The notes under the pieces were generated by a model, which was not told the DNA's origin, searched no databases, and saw only the letters and a list, made by a program, of their open reading frames with translations. DNA of 64,000 nucleotides from an uncultured Eubacteriales bacterium (GTDB lineage Bacteria > Bacillota > Clostridia > Christensenellales > CAG-138), in contig UQWD01000008.1 in NCBI GenBank assembly GCA_900544555.1, forward strand, positions 14,021 to 78,020, read 5' to 3'. The position numbers and the translations under genes were made by a program. Below are positions 56,641 to 64,000 of this stretch, piece after piece. Position 1 is the stretch's first letter. Every line of letters begins with the position of its first letter.

Positions 56641-57102
56641 TTTTTATGGCATGCGGGGGCGCTTTAGAATCGGAACCGCCTTATTGATAGGGGCCGGCAG
56701 CGCGGCGCCTGCCTCATTAGCGCGGCCGGCGTGATAGGGAGAAATCCTGCCGAACGAGCGCTTTTTAGCCTGTCAACAAATCCTCCTTGATATAATCTAA
56801 ATTCCGCAGGGATTCTGACGGCGTGCTTACATGGAAATCCTTGTTTTTCGGCACAAGGCCGGAGGTTCCGTTAACAATCAGCCGCCCGATTGCAGGAGAT
56901 TTTAAGTACCCGTTTTTTAACTTTCAATATGGCGCTTCCGCGTTTAGGTTAATTGTTATGTGAATTATTTACAACACCTCTTTTTAATTGTCTGAATGGT
57001 CGCAGTGTATGGCGGCGTCCTCCAAAAAAACTCCGTATGAGGGGAATATATATGACGGCCGCGGTCTTGACGCACGTATTTGTTTCAATTACACTATATG
57101 CT

Positions 57103-57134
57103 GCGGCCGGATAACCGGGCCGCGGGTTCTTTTT
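57103..57134 (+). promoter_or_regulatory. Terminator-like hairpin in the glnA leader (GCGGCCGG-ATAA-CCGGGCCGC then GGTTCTTTTT), 37 nt before the glnA start
   Basis: Seen directly; preceded by a TTGACG -35-like hexamer at 57067. Confidence 0.45.
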
Positions 57135-57171
57135 AAATTTTGGGGTCCATTATTTCTGTTGAGGTGAAAAA

Positions 57172-58602
57172 ATGTTTAAATCTCTGAACGACGTAAAGAA
57201 ATTTTGTTCTGAAAACCGTATTGAAATGATCGATTTTAAAATGACCGATCTGGATGGGCGTTGGAGGCATATCACCATACCGGCCGACCGCTTTGACGAG
57301 GACACGATGAAGTATGGAATCGGTTTTGACGGCTCGAACTACGGTTATGCCATGGTAGAGAAAAGCGATATGGTGTTTATACCCGATCTCTCCTCGGCCG
57401 CCGTAGATCCATTTGTAAAAACGCCCACGCTGACAATGATAGGCGACGTAATGATTATTGATCACCCGAACAACAGGCCGTTTGATCAGTATCCGCGCAA
57501 CGTGGCCAAGCGCGCGGTTGAATATATGCGCGAAACGGGCGTTGCGGACGAGATGATCATTGGGCCGGAATTTGAGTTTCATGTTTTTGATAAAGTTCAA
57601 TTTGAGTCACTTCCCCAGCGCGTAGGCTATGAGGTGGATACCGCCGAAGCGTCCTGGAATACCGCGAGGCCGGAGGGCGGGGCGGGCTTCCAGAACCCGG
57701 GTCATGGCGGCTATCATATCGACAGCCCTCACGATATCACGTTTGATCTGAGAAACGAGATGTGCATGGCGCTGGAGAAATGGGGCGTGGCCGTAAAATA
57801 CCATCATCATGAGGTCGGGGGCGCCGGTCAGCTTGAGATTGAGGTCGAGCTTGGCGAGATGACCCGAATGGCGGACAATACCATGACCGCTAAGTACGTC
57901 ATCCGTAACGCCGCCGTAAACGCGGGCAAAACCGCCACGCTCATGCCCAAGCCCATCAAAGGGGAGGCGGGCAACGGCATGCACGTGCATATGCTTTTGA
58001 AGAAGGGCGGCGCTCCCGTGTTTTACAGCGAGGAGGGATACGGCCATTTAAGCGAAACGGCGCTGTATTTTATCGGCGGGCTTTTAAAGCACGCGAGCTC
58101 GCTGTGCGGGTTCACCAACCCCTCTACGAATTCATTTAAGCGGCTGGTTCCTGGCTTTGAAGCCCCGGTCACCATCGGGTACGCGATGGCAAACCGCAGC
58201 GCGGTAGTCCGCATCCCCGCGTACGCCAAGTCGCCGGATAAAAAGCGCTTCGAGCTGAGGAACCCGGACGCGACCTGCAACCCGTATTACGCTTACGCGG
58301 CGATTCTGATGGCCGGGCTGGACGGGATAGCGAACCACATCGACCCGCATAAGGAGGGATGGGGCCCTTACGACTTCAACCTTTTCAACCTTCCCGAGGA
58401 GGAAAAGGCGAAGATAGCCGGCCTTCCCGCAAGCCTTGGCGAGGCGCTGGACGCGCTCGAGGCTGACCATGAATACCTCACAAAAGGCGGGGTATTTCCG
58501 GAAACCCTGATAAAAACCTGGATCAGGCGCAAGCGCGCCGAGGCGGAAAAAATCGAGCAGACGCCGCACCCCGCCGAGTTCGTCCAATATTATAACCTAT
58601 AA
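57172..58602 (+). CDS. glnA: Glutamine synthetase type I
   Basis: 476 aa; GS catalytic motifs. Confidence 0.9.
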   Translation: MFKSLNDVKKFCSENRIEMIDFKMTDLDGRWRHITIPADRFDEDTMKYGIGFDGSNYGYAMVEKSDMVFIPDLSSAAVDPFVKTPTLTMIGDVMIIDHPNNRPFDQYPRNVAKRAVEYMRETGVADEMIIGPEFEFHVFDKVQFESLPQRVGYEVDTAEASWNTARPEGGAGFQNPGHGGYHIDSPHDITFDLRNEMCMALEKWGVAVKYHHHEVGGAGQLEIEVELGEMTRMADNTMTAKYVIRNAAVNAGKTATLMPKPIKGEAGNGMHVHMLLKKGGAPVFYSEEGYGHLSETALYFIGGLLKHASSLCGFTNPSTNSFKRLVPGFEAPVTIGYAMANRSAVVRIPAYAKSPDKKRFELRNPDATCNPYYAYAAILMAGLDGIANHIDPHKEGWGPYDFNLFNLPEEEKAKIAGLPASLGEALDALEADHEYLTKGGVFPETLIKTWIRRKRAEAEKIEQTPHPAEFVQYYNL

Positions 58603-58975: not shown

Positions 58976-60717
58976 ATGATTCGTTTATCCAATATCAACC
59001 TGAAATTCAGTCGCGTTCTGATAGAAAATGGACGGATGAACATTCCAGATGGGAAAATCACGGTCATTACCGGTAAAAGCGGAAGCGGCAAGACTACGCT
59101 ACTTTATTTGCTCGGCTTAATCTCGTCCAGCCAGGGATTATCATTATAATTTCGACGGGCATGAGGTGAACCTTCGCTCCGACAAGGAAGTAAGCTCGTT
59201 AAGAAAAACGAGAATCGGCTATGTGTTTCAGGATAACTCGCTGATTGACAGCTTAACGGTCGCAGAGAATATCCGCAATACCGCCCGAATTGCCGGCGTG
59301 CCGATTACACAGAACGACGTTAAGCATTATTTAAATCAGGTAAAGCTCGATGCTGGATTGCGGCAGTATCCCAAGACCTTATCCGGCGGGGAACGGCAAA
59401 GGCTGGCAATCGCTTGCGCCATGGCGAAAAAGCCGGACTTAATTATAGCGGATGAGCCTACGTCCGCGCTAGATAAAGAAAACAGCGCCGTTATCATGGG
59501 TATTTTTAAAGAGTTCGCCGCGCGGGAAAATAAAAAGGTGGTTATTGCTTCGCATAGCGCTCTCGCGCGTGAAATTGGAGATGTGATCTATGAAATATCG
59601 GATTGCAGGATTCAATTAATTCAAGGCTGCGACGGACATAAAGCGGAGTATGCCGGGGAACGCCCGGCCCATAAATGCAAAGCGCTCGGCTTCAAATTTG
59701 CCGCCGGATACGCGCTAAAAACCATGCGTAAGTCGAAATTTTTAAAATCGCTCATGCTGCTTTTGTGCGCCGCTGCCATAGCTTTGGCCGCCGGCGTCAG
59801 CGGGGTTGGGAACGGGGTTATCGCGCGCCAGCAGAGCCTTTTGGATGAACTATCAGACCGGCAGATATTTTTGATTAATTTTACCGCCCCATTAAATACG
59901 TTTATGGATGTTGACGAACACATTTCCATATCAAACGACGACTTTGCGCGCATACAAAGCGTTTCCGGCATCGATACGGTATATCCGTATTTTGAGTTTC
60001 GGTCCGTTGGATTTGATATTGAAAAATCAGCGTCATACCATGCGTGCAAAGTCGGCGTTACTACTGAATTGGATGAAAGGCAGTTTTCCTTTGATACTTT
60101 TGGCCACGACGGATACCATAGCATCGCTGTGCTTCCGTATTATGAGGAAGAAAACCTTGAAAAGCGCGTATTTCAATCGTTTAACGCCGATAGCGGCAAG
60201 GGCGGCGCAATTTATCTGTCGCATCAATTAGCGAATATGCTGGCGCTTGCGGAAGGGAATGAAAAGCACGTTCAAATACAGCTTGACTTGGGCGTACCAG
60301 TTTATACCGCTGATGTTGATCTACAGGTATCAGGGACACAAGCTGAATATGCCGCGGATGTGGATTTATCCGTAATTACCTCATTGAATTTGGATATATC
60401 GGGCGTATTGGATTACGATTATACGAACAAATACTCGGCAAGCGGCGATAATGAACGGGCTTAACAAGAATGAGGCTTTACGCCTTGTGCTGGCCGAGGC
60501 ACTTTTGCAGATAATAATTATCTCGTCGCTGGCCGCATTGTTTACGCTTATACTAAATGGTGTAGTGAATATGCTGTTTAATTTTAAGGCTGCGGCATTT
60601 TCCGCCGGGACAGCCCTAATAATTGTTTTGGTTTCTTTGTTATCCGTAATTGGCCCGTCTGCCGGAAGCATAATCATAATGAATAATGTTAAGCCTGACA
60701 GGATTATGAGGAATTAG
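58976..60717 (+). pseudogene. MacB-like fused ABC transporter (ATPase plus FtsX-type permease) disrupted by two frameshifts
   Basis: Walker A GKSGSGKTT (58976-59149) is cut off after SSSQG. The gene continues in another frame (YNFDGHEV...LSGGERQ...LIIADEPTSALD) with a TM segment and extracellular domain to 60464. It then shifts again into the C-terminal TM segments (60451-60717). Confidence 0.55.
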
Positions 60718-61036: not shown

Positions 61037-61615
61037 TTAAGTATAATATTCTGTTATTCGTTTACCATTTACCAGTTCATCTTCATCAGGCGGCACAAAC
61101 ATCGGTTCTACATAATCGAACATTTCATCCGTTACCTCAAACGCGTATGTAGAGCCTTTTTCCTCGTTTCTTTTTTTTACACGCCGCCTGCGCTCCTTTA
61201 CAGGTATATCCAAATAATGAACTGATACATCCGCCCCTATACCTAGCGCCCACTTGCGATAGTATTCTCTAAAGTCAAAATCGCCAAACCCGATTTCAAG
61301 AATTACGCTGATACCATTCTTCAAAATTGGTTCCGATACTTCTCTAATCAGCTTTTTACACCGCTGAGTTCTTTCCGTAAGCCATGCAAAATCATGTGTT
61401 TGCGGGTCATAATCCGAACCATATAGCGTTTGCATCCATGGATCTATGGAAAAATAAACCGCACCGATTTGTTCGGCTAAATTCAATGAATATGTGGATT
61501 TTCCTGAGGCCGTATTCCCGCAAATAAGATAAACCGTGCTTATTTTCTTATCCCCCTCTTCTTCGACTTGCCGCCCGGAGGCGAGCCAAGCGCCCACGAG
61601 TATTACCGCCGCCAT
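61037..61615 (-). CDS. P-loop NTPase, AAA_33/nucleoside-kinase-like
   Basis: P-loop GNTASGKST; 192 aa with a hydrophobic 14-aa N-terminus. Confidence 0.5.
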   Translation of the reverse strand: MAAVILVGAWLASGRQVEEEGDKKISTVYLICGNTASGKSTYSLNLAEQIGAVYFSIDPWMQTLYGSDYDPQTHDFAWLTERTQRCKKLIREVSEPILKNGISVILEIGFGDFDFREYYRKWALGIGADVSVHYLDIPVKERRRRVKKRNEEKGSTYAFEVTDEMFDYVEPMFVPPDEDELVNGKRITEYYT

Positions 61616-61842
61616 CCATAGCCCGAAGAAACGTCAAAAGCGGGAAGCGGCTTGTAATAACCAGCAGATTTTTCAGCCTGTAAACAGCGTTATAGGCATC
61701 TTTTACGCTTTTTACGCGGCGGCAAGGCTTTATCCAGCCGCCGCGCTGACGAAAAGGGCTTACAGCCGCGTAAGGGTCTATTTACACCTTTTCGTTCATG
61801 AAAAAGCATCTTGACATAAGACCAAAAGGGTATGCGCGCGTT

Positions 61843-62844
61843 TTACGCCATCAGCCCCTCCTGAACGGCCACGGCGACCGCAACAGTCGCGCCGACCATG
61901 GGGTTGTTGCCCATGCCGATGAGGCCCATCATCTCAACGTGCGCGGGGACTGAGGAGGAGCCTGCGAACTGCGCGTCCGAATGCATGCGGCCCATAGTGT
62001 CGGTCATGCCGTAGGAAGCGGGCCCCGCCGCCATGTTGTCCGGGTGGAGCGTGCGGCCCGTGCCGCCTCCAGAAGCCACGGAAAAATATTTCTTTCCGTT
62101 TTCAACGCACCATTTTTTGTATGTTCCGGCGACCGGGTGCTGAAAGCGCGTGGGGTTCGTTGAGTTGCCCGTGATGGATACATCCACCTGCTCATGCCGC
62201 ATGACAGCCACGCCTTCGCTTACGTCGTCCGCCCCGTAGCAGCGCACCTTGGCCCTGTCTCCATTTGAGAATGCGGTGGTTTTTGTTACGGCGAGCTCGC
62301 CGGTGAATTCGTTATAATCCGTCTCAACATGGGTAAACCCATTGATGCGTGAGATGATATACGCGGCGTCTTTGCCTAAACCATTGAGTATGACCTGCAA
62401 AGGCTCCCTGCGCACCTTATTGGCGGTTCGCGCTATGCCGATAGCCCCTTCGGCCGCGGCAAAGCTCTCATGGCCGGCAAGGAAGGCGAAGCAATGCGTA
62501 TCCTCGCGAAGCAGCATCGCCGCCAGATTGCCGTGGCCAATGCCCACATTGCGCTGGGAAGCCACAGAGCCGGGGATGCAAAAGCCCTGCAAGCCTATGC
62601 CGATAGCTTCTGCCGCTTCAGCGGCCGACCGCGCGTTTTTCTTAATAGCGACAGCCGCGCCCAGCGTATAGGCCCAAACGGCGTTCTCAAACGCGATGGG
62701 CTGTATGCCATGAACGATGGCGCGCACGTCAACGCCCTTTTCCCCGCAGATGCGGAGGGCATCATCAAAATCCGCAATGCCGTATTGAGCCATAACGCCA
62801 TTGATTTTATCGATTCTTCTTTCGTAGCCTTCAAAAGTTACCAT
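61843..62844 (-). CDS. GGGtGRT-family protein (uncharacterised)
   Basis: SVASGGGTGRTLHPDN signature; RBS AAAGGAGGG; 14 nt after the upstream gene. Confidence 0.65.
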   Translation of the reverse strand: MVTFEGYERRIDKINGVMAQYGIADFDDALRICGEKGVDVRAIVHGIQPIAFENAVWAYTLGAAVAIKKNARSAAEAAEAIGIGLQGFCIPGSVASQRNVGIGHGNLAAMLLREDTHCFAFLAGHESFAAAEGAIGIARTANKVRREPLQVILNGLGKDAAYIISRINGFTHVETDYNEFTGELAVTKTTAFSNGDRAKVRCYGADDVSEGVAVMRHEQVDVSITGNSTNPTRFQHPVAGTYKKWCVENGKKYFSVASGGGTGRTLHPDNMAAGPASYGMTDTMGRMHSDAQFAGSSSVPAHVEMMGLIGMGNNPMVGATVAVAVAVQEGLMA

Positions 62845-62858
62845 TCTATTGCCCTCCT

Positions 62859-63551
62859 TTACTGGCGACGGGGGTCGATTACCGTTACGGCCTCGGCAAA
62901 ACGTCCGTAAATATTGATATTTTTCTCATAAGCTTCCTTTGGATCAACGCCTTTTTTTATCGCATCCATCATTTTGCCGAGGTTAACAAACTGATAGCCG
63001 ATGATTTCGCCGGCGCTGTCCAGGCCGATATTGAGAACATAGCCTTCGGCCATATCCAAATAACGCGGGCCCTTAGCCCGGGTGCTGAACATGGTGCCCA
63101 CCTGCGAGCGCAAGCCCTTGCCCAAATCCTCAAGCCCCGCGCCGACGGGGAGGCCGCCCTCGGAAAACGCGCTTTGCGTGCGGCCGTATGCGATTTGAAG
63201 AAAAAGCTCGCGCATGGCGGTATTTATCGCATCGCACACAAGGTCGGAATTGAGCGCCTCCAATATGGTTTTTCCCGATAAAATTTCCGCCGCCATCGCG
63301 GCGGAATGGGTCATGCCCGAACAGCCGATGGTTTCAATCAAAGCTTCCTCAATAACGCCCTCTTTAACATTGAGCGTGAGTTTGCAAGCCCCCTGCTGAG
63401 GAGCGCACCAGCCCACGCCATGAGTCAGCCCGCTGATATCCGTTATCTGCTTGGCCTCAACCCATTTGCCCTCCTCAGGAATAGGGGAAGGGCCGTGCTT
63501 CGCGCCTTTTGCGACGCAAAACATTTCCTCAACTTCTTTAGAATACTGCAT
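62859..63551 (-). CDS. NifU/IscU N-terminal-like domain protein
   Basis: CAPQQGACKLTLNV...IGCSGMTHSAAMAAEILSGKTILEA matches the IscU scaffold Cys pattern. Confidence 0.5.
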   Translation of the reverse strand: MQYSKEVEEMFCVAKGAKHGPSPIPEEGKWVEAKQITDISGLTHGVGWCAPQQGACKLTLNVKEGVIEEALIETIGCSGMTHSAAMAAEILSGKTILEALNSDLVCDAINTAMRELFLQIAYGRTQSAFSEGGLPVGAGLEDLGKGLRSQVGTMFSTRAKGPRYLDMAEGYVLNIGLDSAGEIIGYQFVNLGKMMDAIKKGVDPKEAYEKNINIYGRFAEAVTVIDPRRQ

Positions 63552-63726
63552 TCATACTCCTCCTTTTTTAGGGATAACCTTATTATGATGAAAAATCCGG
63601 CGTTAAACCCTAACCGGGCAATGAATAACCGGTAATCATTCACAAAATACACGCGCGCGTTTGCTGTACACTGGGTCGGCTCGCGGATACGCATGCGCCG
63701 CAACCATATCAAGCCGCGCCTTGTCA

Positions 63727-63735
63727 TTATACCAT
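63727..63735 (-). promoter_or_regulatory. Extended -10 promoter (TGGTATAAT) giving an approximately 165-nt leader for the NifU-like/GGGtGRT operon
   Basis: Reverse complement of ATTATACCA, seen directly. Confidence 0.4.
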
Positions 63736-64000
63736 ATCGGAACCGAAATCCAAATTCCATTTGTTAAATTGTTGCCAATGCCTGACGGCGTATTCATATG
63801 TTACGGGGTAAGCGGCAAGGCATTCGTATTATGCAGTCGGTTTATTATATACTGCCGCAGGCGTATTCTTTATTAAACGGCGCAAAGGGGGAAAACGCGC
63901 CTTTGCGTTTGATGCCAGGCCGGTATGCATGGTACAATCATAAAAACGCTAAAATGGGGGTTTTGCCCATGGGGATCATATCCTATTCGCTTGCGGTTAT

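Follow-up and report, generated by a model that had tools for sequence, protein, structure and literature searches.

Background

The closest described relatives of the locus studied here are BT0173 and BT0174 of Bacteroides thetaiotaomicron, neighbouring genes for a protein of the GGGtGRT family (PF14057) and a protein annotated as NifU-like. The second of these names refers to the U-type scaffolds, such as IscU, on which transient iron-sulfur (Fe-S) clusters are assembled. We present an analysis of a homologous gene pair in a stretch of 64,000 nucleotides (nt), hereafter the window, from contig UQWD01000008.1 of an uncultured Eubacteriales bacterium; all coordinates are those of the window. 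A sequence-only reading of this DNA had proposed that a NifU/IscU-like protein and a GGGtGRT protein of no known function act together in metallo-cofactor maturation. Primary analysis revealed that the two genes are inseparable neighbours wherever they could be examined, and that the NifU-like partner is not a canonical scaffold. We favour the interpretation, to which we give slightly less than an even chance, that the pair forms an obligate two-subunit, iron-dependent complex of strict anaerobes, most probably an enzyme.

No function has been assigned to the pair in the published work that we found, in agreement with the sequence-only reading, and several reports bear on its expression. BT0173-74 are down 11-13-fold under iron depletion. 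A Clostridium pasteurianum homologue appears as differentially abundant in the table of a proteomics study on iron availability, and we read it as higher with iron, the column headings being unchecked. GGGtGRT and "NifU" have been reported as highly expressed in vivo in anaerobes of the chicken caecum, both proteins have been detected in the rumen metaproteome, and GGGtGRT has turned up as a target of a monoclonal antibody that was raised against Segatella copri. Recently, a 2026 preprint has described BT0173-4 transposon mutants that partly relieve the glucose-dependent inhibition of the regulator Cur, in a screen that also recovered pfkA and an M16 peptidase locus; this is a weak link of BT0173-74 to glucose signalling.

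Databases and papers already contain the family and its motif and, at any rate for BT0173-74, record that the two genes are neighbours. The window copy, unremarkable in itself, adds a further member to this known but uncharacterised family. The family as a whole is noteworthy, being highly similar across phyla, always adjacent to its partner, abundant in gut and rumen anaerobes and controlled by iron. What is added here is a measure of how universal the pairing is, a description of the "NifU" protein as two domains with a rearranged set of cysteines, the finding that GGGtGRT is without a solved structural relative, and the phosphomutase context of a divergent clade. Additionally, the long leader ahead of the pair is demoted.

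Results and discussion

The two genes form a self-contained bicistronic unit

The pair occupies the following positions:

62859..63551, minus strand: NifU/IscU-like subunit, 230 amino acids (open reading frame and profile matches)
62845..62858, minus strand: intergenic spacer of exactly 14 nt, AGGAGGGCAATAGA, with AGGAGG at 62853-62858
61843..62844, minus strand: GGGtGRT protein, 333 amino acids (open reading frame and PF14057 match)
62050..62070, minus strand: GGGTGRT motif, residues 259-265 of the GGGtGRT protein (translation)

The NifU-like gene is the 5' partner, and the GGGtGRT gene starts 14 nt downstream on the same strand, exactly the gap given by the sequence-only reading. The co-transcription assumed in that reading is plausible, because the short spacer carries a ribosome-binding site and no terminator intervenes.

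A pattern scan covering one genome per GTDB species listed at least 600 matches, and the best 80 loci were analysed. Three were cut by contig ends, with less than 125 nt of upstream sequence; in all of the 77 testable loci the NifU-like gene lies directly upstream on the same strand. The phylum labels of the 80 loci comprise Bacillota, Actinomycetota (Collinsella, Eggerthellaceae), Bacteroidota, Spirochaetota, Verrucomicrobiota, Planctomycetota, Elusimicrobiota, Desulfobacterota and Melainabacteria, some of which, where they come from metagenome-assembled genomes, may be binning errors. Isolates, among them Collinsella aerofaciens and Clostridium neonatale, contribute to these loci, and one member of the Methanobacteriaceae is also among the carriers of the family. 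In the loci compared, lengths are nearly constant (230 residues for the NifU-like protein, 331-333 for GGGtGRT), and among those listed the spacers are mostly 9-38 nt, a few being longer, up to 156 nt. Identity to the window copies is 71-84% for both proteins across phyla, and the pairwise distances of the two correlate (r = 0.66), a value reached in none of 2000 permutations. Conserved adjacency in other genomes, the test that the sequence-only reading had set for itself, was therefore found in every testable locus, and it extends to a divergent clade of about 50% identity. The pairing is not due to chance, and the adjacency is essentially absolute.

Using an exhaustive HMMER search, we found that representatives of clusters at 50% identity resolve into one mainstream group and this one divergent branch, about 50% identical, the remaining representatives being fragments or chimeric gene calls. 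Many of the representatives, P0121, P0122, P0130 and P0196 being examples, are chimeras of assembly or gene calling, with internal duplications, out-of-frame read-through tails, or fusions to ABC or SusD-like fragments. The apparent diversity of the GGGtGRT family is thus inflated; the true diversity is tiny.

No third conserved gene accompanies the pair. Clustering by blastp of the open reading frames within 4 kb on either side gave only Collinsella-specific synteny, and a Pfam scan of the 104 immediate neighbours from 53 loci returned 137 families, none of which occurs in more than four loci. The 25 recurrent families listed for these neighbours include no cysteine desulfurase (Aminotran_5), HscA/B (HSP70) or Suf family, and none is among the clustered neighbours within 4 kb either. 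Flavodiiron-type neighbours (ODP plus flavodoxin) were seen in three loci, and a redoxin gene lies near the pair in the window organism. The two genes are a self-contained bicistronic unit.

The NifU-like protein is not a canonical scaffold

The assignment of the upstream protein to the NifU/IscU class, also made by the sequence-only reading, holds in part. The Pfam NifU_N match is just over the cut-off (23.2 bits against a gathering score of 22; residues 55-113, profile positions 37-95 of 127) and IscU chains in the PDB were matched at E ~3e-4, whereas the NCBIfam models for IscU, NifU and SufU gave 19-26 bits against cut-offs of 92-192, a shortfall put at more than 70 bits. Structure models, which for both subunits were made from database proteins of the families, predict an N-terminal domain (about residues 20-122) with the three-dimensional fold of IscU, a Gly-rich linker (123-152), and a C-terminal domain (153-230) with an FMN_bind-like fold. 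The linker is strongly conserved and modelled at lower confidence. No Pfam match was obtained for residues 127-230 at E <= 10, and the [S/T]GAT flavinylation motif is absent from the sequence.

Alignments of 31 and of 95 sequences both showed four invariant cysteines, C49, C56, C77 and C106, together with an invariant H44. HMMER alignments place C77 on the second cysteine of IscU (C63). The first IscU cysteine (C37) aligns to a Gln, which C49 and C56 flank at -3 and +3; furthermore, the position of the labile Asp is not kept, and the protein has neither the CGD signature nor the LPPVK chaperone motif. Of the canonical scaffold set (C37/D39, C63, H105/C106 and LPPVK), only C63 has an aligned equivalent. 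From their secondary-structure positions in the models, the four cysteines would lie at hairpin ends and helix N-termini matching the cluster site of IscU, and such full cysteine ligation would fit a permanent cluster better than the transient cluster of a scaffold. With its rearranged cysteines, its extra C-terminal domain, no LPPVK and no neighbouring cysteine desulfurase, the protein is not a canonical scaffold, and the "NifU" label is probably a misleading annotation.

The GGGtGRT protein has a nearly invariant segment that is poorly modelled alone

The family call of the sequence-only reading for the downstream protein is borne out by an end-to-end match to PF14057 (634 bits against a cut-off of 27; profile positions 1-326 of 327), with the motif at residues 259-265; NCBIfam has no model for this protein. 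The GGGTGRT motif is invariant in 86 aligned members, as are, among other residues, H104, H125, E126, E132, E210, H267, D269, D282, R286, H288 and H302. About 60 consecutive residues, including His, Asp, Arg, Ser and Thr, are near-invariant.

The single-chain AlphaFold 2 (AF2) model has a predicted local distance difference test score (pLDDT) of 82.9 and a predicted template modelling score of 0.84. It predicts an N-terminal helical domain, a central alpha/beta domain of Rossmann/SIS-like type, and a nearly invariant C-terminal region rich in Gly, Ser, Met and His. Residues 255-320, the most conserved part of the protein and the one that contains the motif, were for the most part modelled at low confidence: block means run from about 35 to 72, and pLDDT falls below 50 at 260-281. 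This segment probably becomes ordered on a partner, a metal or a ligand. A Foldseek search with the model returned nothing at E <= 1e-3, with template modelling scores of 0.29 at most, and neither single-sequence nor profile searches found relatives in the PDB. Beyond the generic Rossmann/SIS-like core, GGGtGRT is without a solved structural relative.

A divergent clade lies among phosphate-ester enzymes

The divergent clade was examined in five loci (L089, L092, L094, L096 and L098) on AT-rich gut and termite-gut contigs, in which the pair is retained and the two genes overlap. All five have the same order: an HTH_3 regulator, an ApgM-type mutase, the NifU-like gene, the GGGtGRT gene, a membrane protein of about 320 residues, and a His_Phos_1 gene. 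The ApgM-type protein is a phosphoglycerate-mutase-like enzyme and His_Phos_1 a phosphatase or mutase. One locus additionally has GpmI, another a HAD hydrolase, and in L094 three different genes of the phosphoglycerate-mutase type stand next to one another. The accessory enzymes of the cluster all act on phosphate esters; the membrane protein has no family match and no PDB match. Outside this clade, a separate observation concerns L100 (1707-5951), in which a 1414-residue BcrAD_BadFG plus DUF2229 protein, a fusion resembling an activator of 2-hydroxyacyl-CoA dehydratase, adjoins a 392-residue GGGtGRT variant.

A putative two-subunit, iron-dependent enzyme

In the interpretation that we favour, the NifU-like subunit would be a U-type scaffold fold recruited as the seat of a permanent Fe-S cluster or of another metal site, with the four invariant cysteines as ligands at the place where IscU assembles its transient cluster, and with the FMN_bind-like-fold domain as an addition. 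The GGGtGRT subunit would supply the substrate site, formed by its Rossmann/SIS-like core and its nearly invariant Gly/Ser/His/Met-rich segment; the latter would probably be ordered only in the presence of the partner, metal or ligand. For the substrate, we tentatively suggest a phosphorylated central metabolite, a detail that, taken alone, we consider doubtful.

Several lines of evidence point to such an enzyme. The four invariant cysteines are at an IscU-like cluster site, and the most conserved segment of GGGtGRT is the one least confidently modelled alone. The strict synteny, fixed lengths, high identity (71-84%) and correlated distances, as well as the pairing in the divergent clade, argue for two proteins that would work as one complex. 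No neighbour family recurs, and no assembly machinery is among those listed. Finally, BT0173-74 respond to iron, are highly expressed, and share a Cur phenotype with pfkA. The hint of a phospho-substrate comes from the divergent clade, which in all five loci is embedded among ApgM-type and His_Phos_1 genes.

Several observations weigh against this interpretation. GGGtGRT has no cysteine that is invariant across all aligned members. The phosphomutase context is found only in the small divergent clade and is absent from the 53 mainstream loci. In the BT0173-4 mutants, the effect on Cur was just 2-fold and growth on glucose was normal. Iron-responsive expression equally fits storage or assembly roles. 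Furthermore, it is from sequences and models that we infer the complex, the cluster and catalysis.

The proposal of the sequence-only reading, that the pair is an assembly or maturation system for Fe-S or other metallo-cofactors, would make the NifU-like protein a transient scaffold and GGGtGRT its partner, a carrier or a target-specific maturase. The marginal NifU_N match, the conserved cysteines and the iron-responsive expression are what this proposal would lead one to expect. However, the NCBIfam scaffold cut-offs are missed by a wide margin, the first cysteine and the labile Asp of IscU are not kept in position, LPPVK is absent, and neither the recurrent families nor the 4-kb clusters include a desulfurase, HscA/B or Suf. 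Both proteins are also reported as highly expressed, which is unusual for maturases, so that an enzyme or a structural protein fits better, and the B. thetaiotaomicron mutants grow normally. We found no specific support for a maturation role and regard it as unlikely. Less likely still, in our estimate, is that the pair serves as a non-catalytic store of iron, sulfur or Fe-S, or as a buffer against oxidative stress, abundant in anaerobes. High expression, strong induction by iron, the C. pasteurianum homologue among iron-responsive proteins, the flavodiiron-type neighbours in three loci and the redoxin gene near the window copy would all suit such a role, but the neighbour associations are sporadic, and the run of about 60 near-invariant residues, with its His, Asp, Arg, Ser and Thr, resembles an active site and not a storage surface.

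A two-subunit enzyme remains, then, the interpretation to develop, and the pair is best studied as a complex. In its most far-reaching form, it would be an unrecognised Fe-S or other-metal enzyme with a new fold and active-site type, near-universal in host-associated strict anaerobes and acting on a phosphorylated central metabolite, in which the scaffold fold has become a permanent cluster-carrying subunit; we would not expect this version to hold in its entirety. If it were true, the step in question would belong to glycolysis or to a phosphoglycerate or phospho-amino-acid branch. The IscU fold has seemingly been converted into a four-cysteine subunit with an added domain, and the position of the divergent clade among phosphomutase and phosphatase genes gives a tangible starting point for identifying the substrate. 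Were an activity established, it would supply a missing piece of core metabolism in gut anaerobes and put right an annotation that has been propagated very widely.

The leader is not a conserved feature

The remaining features around the pair are:

63726..63734, minus strand: candidate extended -10 promoter element TGGTATAAT (exact match)
63552..63725, minus strand: putative 5' leader, which would measure about 165 nt with transcription from the distal promoter
63611..63632, minus strand: two CCGGTTA copies (63611-63617 and 63626-63632), within an imperfect palindrome around CCGG
63557..63564, minus strand: ribosome-binding site AGGAGGAG, 5 nt ahead of the NifU-like ATG (sequence reading)
61717..61744, minus strand: GC hairpin of 8 bp without a U-tract, about 100 nt past the GGGtGRT stop codon (sequence reading)

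The extended -10 element named in the sequence-only reading is present, 174 nt from the NifU-like ATG. The motif class to which it belongs, TGNTATAAT, occurs eight times in the window against 2.4 expected, a count reached in none of 100 shuffles, and seven of the eight copies are on the minus strand; the motif is thus probably meaningful in this genome. Several of the copies are inside crude calls of open reading frames. The -35 region of TGGTATAAT is poor, and a consensus promoter scan did not report the element, which is plausible as a promoter from its sequence.

If TGGTATAAT is the promoter, the 5' untranslated region of about 165 nt follows, as had been claimed; as a functional element it found no support. 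The putative leader folds no better than shuffled sequences (z = +0.61), and no Rfam match was obtained at E <= 10 within 63400-64000. Against the closest other species (L005, L007 and L008, proteins 85-88% identical), the leader could be aligned only at its ribosome-binding site and at the start codon; loci from the same species, being 98% identical here, are uninformative. The GGAGG core of the ribosome-binding site is kept in relatives. In the upstream regions of 53 non-redundant loci, -10-like elements picked out by eye are mostly no more than about 100 nt from the start codon, and counts of k-mers revealed neither a common motif nor a Fur- or PerR-like operator, only AT-rich and promoter-like words recurring.

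The two copies of the claimed CCGGTTA direct repeat are likewise present, but the repeat is not clearly above chance and not conserved: the window holds 16 copies of the 7-mer where 9.6 would be expected and two of 100 shuffles reach 16, two further short two-copy repeats lie within the same 500 nt, and the repeat is absent from the upstream regions of close relatives. It was therefore rejected as a regulatory site. One could suppose that the operon is controlled through its leader, acting either as a cis-regulatory RNA (a riboswitch or an attenuator) or, by way of CCGGTTA, as a site of protein binding; this idea would draw on the distance of the candidate extended -10 from the start codon and on the imperfect palindrome. 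Against these stand the Rfam result, the folding energy, the lack of conservation in the closest other species and of a shared motif in the 53 loci, and a count of the repeat that is not clearly above chance. We consider this regulatory idea very improbable overall, and a riboswitch or structured leader was rejected on the Rfam, folding, conservation and motif results. This organism may have a long leader, which is not a conserved feature of the system.

Separately, the only Rfam match at gathering level in the window is a full-length Lys riboswitch aptamer (RF00168, 71.3 bits) at 2451-2629 on the plus strand. Also on the plus strand, TGATATAAT lies 375 nt upstream of a glutamine synthetase gene (57172-58602), which would leave a long untranslated gap (56788-57172); no gathering-level Rfam match was found in it.

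Neighbouring genes and other features of the window

The 3' end of the two-gene unit, in the region of the 61717..61744 hairpin, is uncertain; the hairpin was not called by a terminator scan. The downstream neighbour, which starts about 230-300 nt further on, is an AAA_33 kinase-like gene (61037..61615). Several Christensenellales relatives (e.g. L001, 7577-8530, and L007/L008) have a WYL/WCX-type regulator in divergent orientation ahead of the pair, and some of them also a YhhN membrane protein in such a position; other lineages have neither there. The names of near-identical proteins point to Christensenellales-type gut Clostridia as the host, and the same locus was found in many human-gut metagenome assemblies.

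Elsewhere in the window, a gene for an ABC_tran plus FtsX fusion (59166-60717, plus strand) is split, as it is in L002, into products of 432 and 88 residues whose frames overlap near 60451-60464, whereas three same-species metagenome contigs encode a single product of 701 residues (L001, 12129-14234). The split could be a frameshift, a pseudogene or strain variation.

Comparison with known systems

The U-type scaffolds (IscU, the N-domain of NifU and SufU; PF01592) share with the NifU-like subunit a cysteine that corresponds to C63 of IscU and sits in a GC motif at the N-terminus of a helix. The subunit differs from them in having four invariant cysteines, two of which flank the position of the missing first IscU cysteine, in a deletion of about 20 residues ahead of the last cysteine, in an extra C-terminal region of 105 residues, and in the lack of a cysteine desulfurase among the 25 recurrent neighbour families listed from 53 loci. 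To FMN_bind (PF04205; NqrC, RnfG and extracellular flavoproteins), the C-terminal domain is similar by predicted fold only, being without a Pfam match and without [S/T]GAT, and ApbE is not a conserved neighbour. The central domain of GGGtGRT resembles the SIS domains (PF01380; phosphosugar binding and isomerisation) of GmhA, MurQ and the GlmS isomerase at 7-10% identity, many other Rossmann-like folds scoring equally, and its N-terminal helical and C-terminal Gly-rich regions have no counterpart there. The true match of the window pair is the PF14057 family with its NifU-like partner, for example BT0173-BT0174, with the same motif, length, gene order and tight spacer; homologues from other phyla reach 74-84% identity. 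Nothing essential differs between the two; what sets the window copy apart is an upstream region that is longer and not conserved, together with flanking genes of its own, the WYL/WCX regulator and the AAA_33 kinase-like gene.

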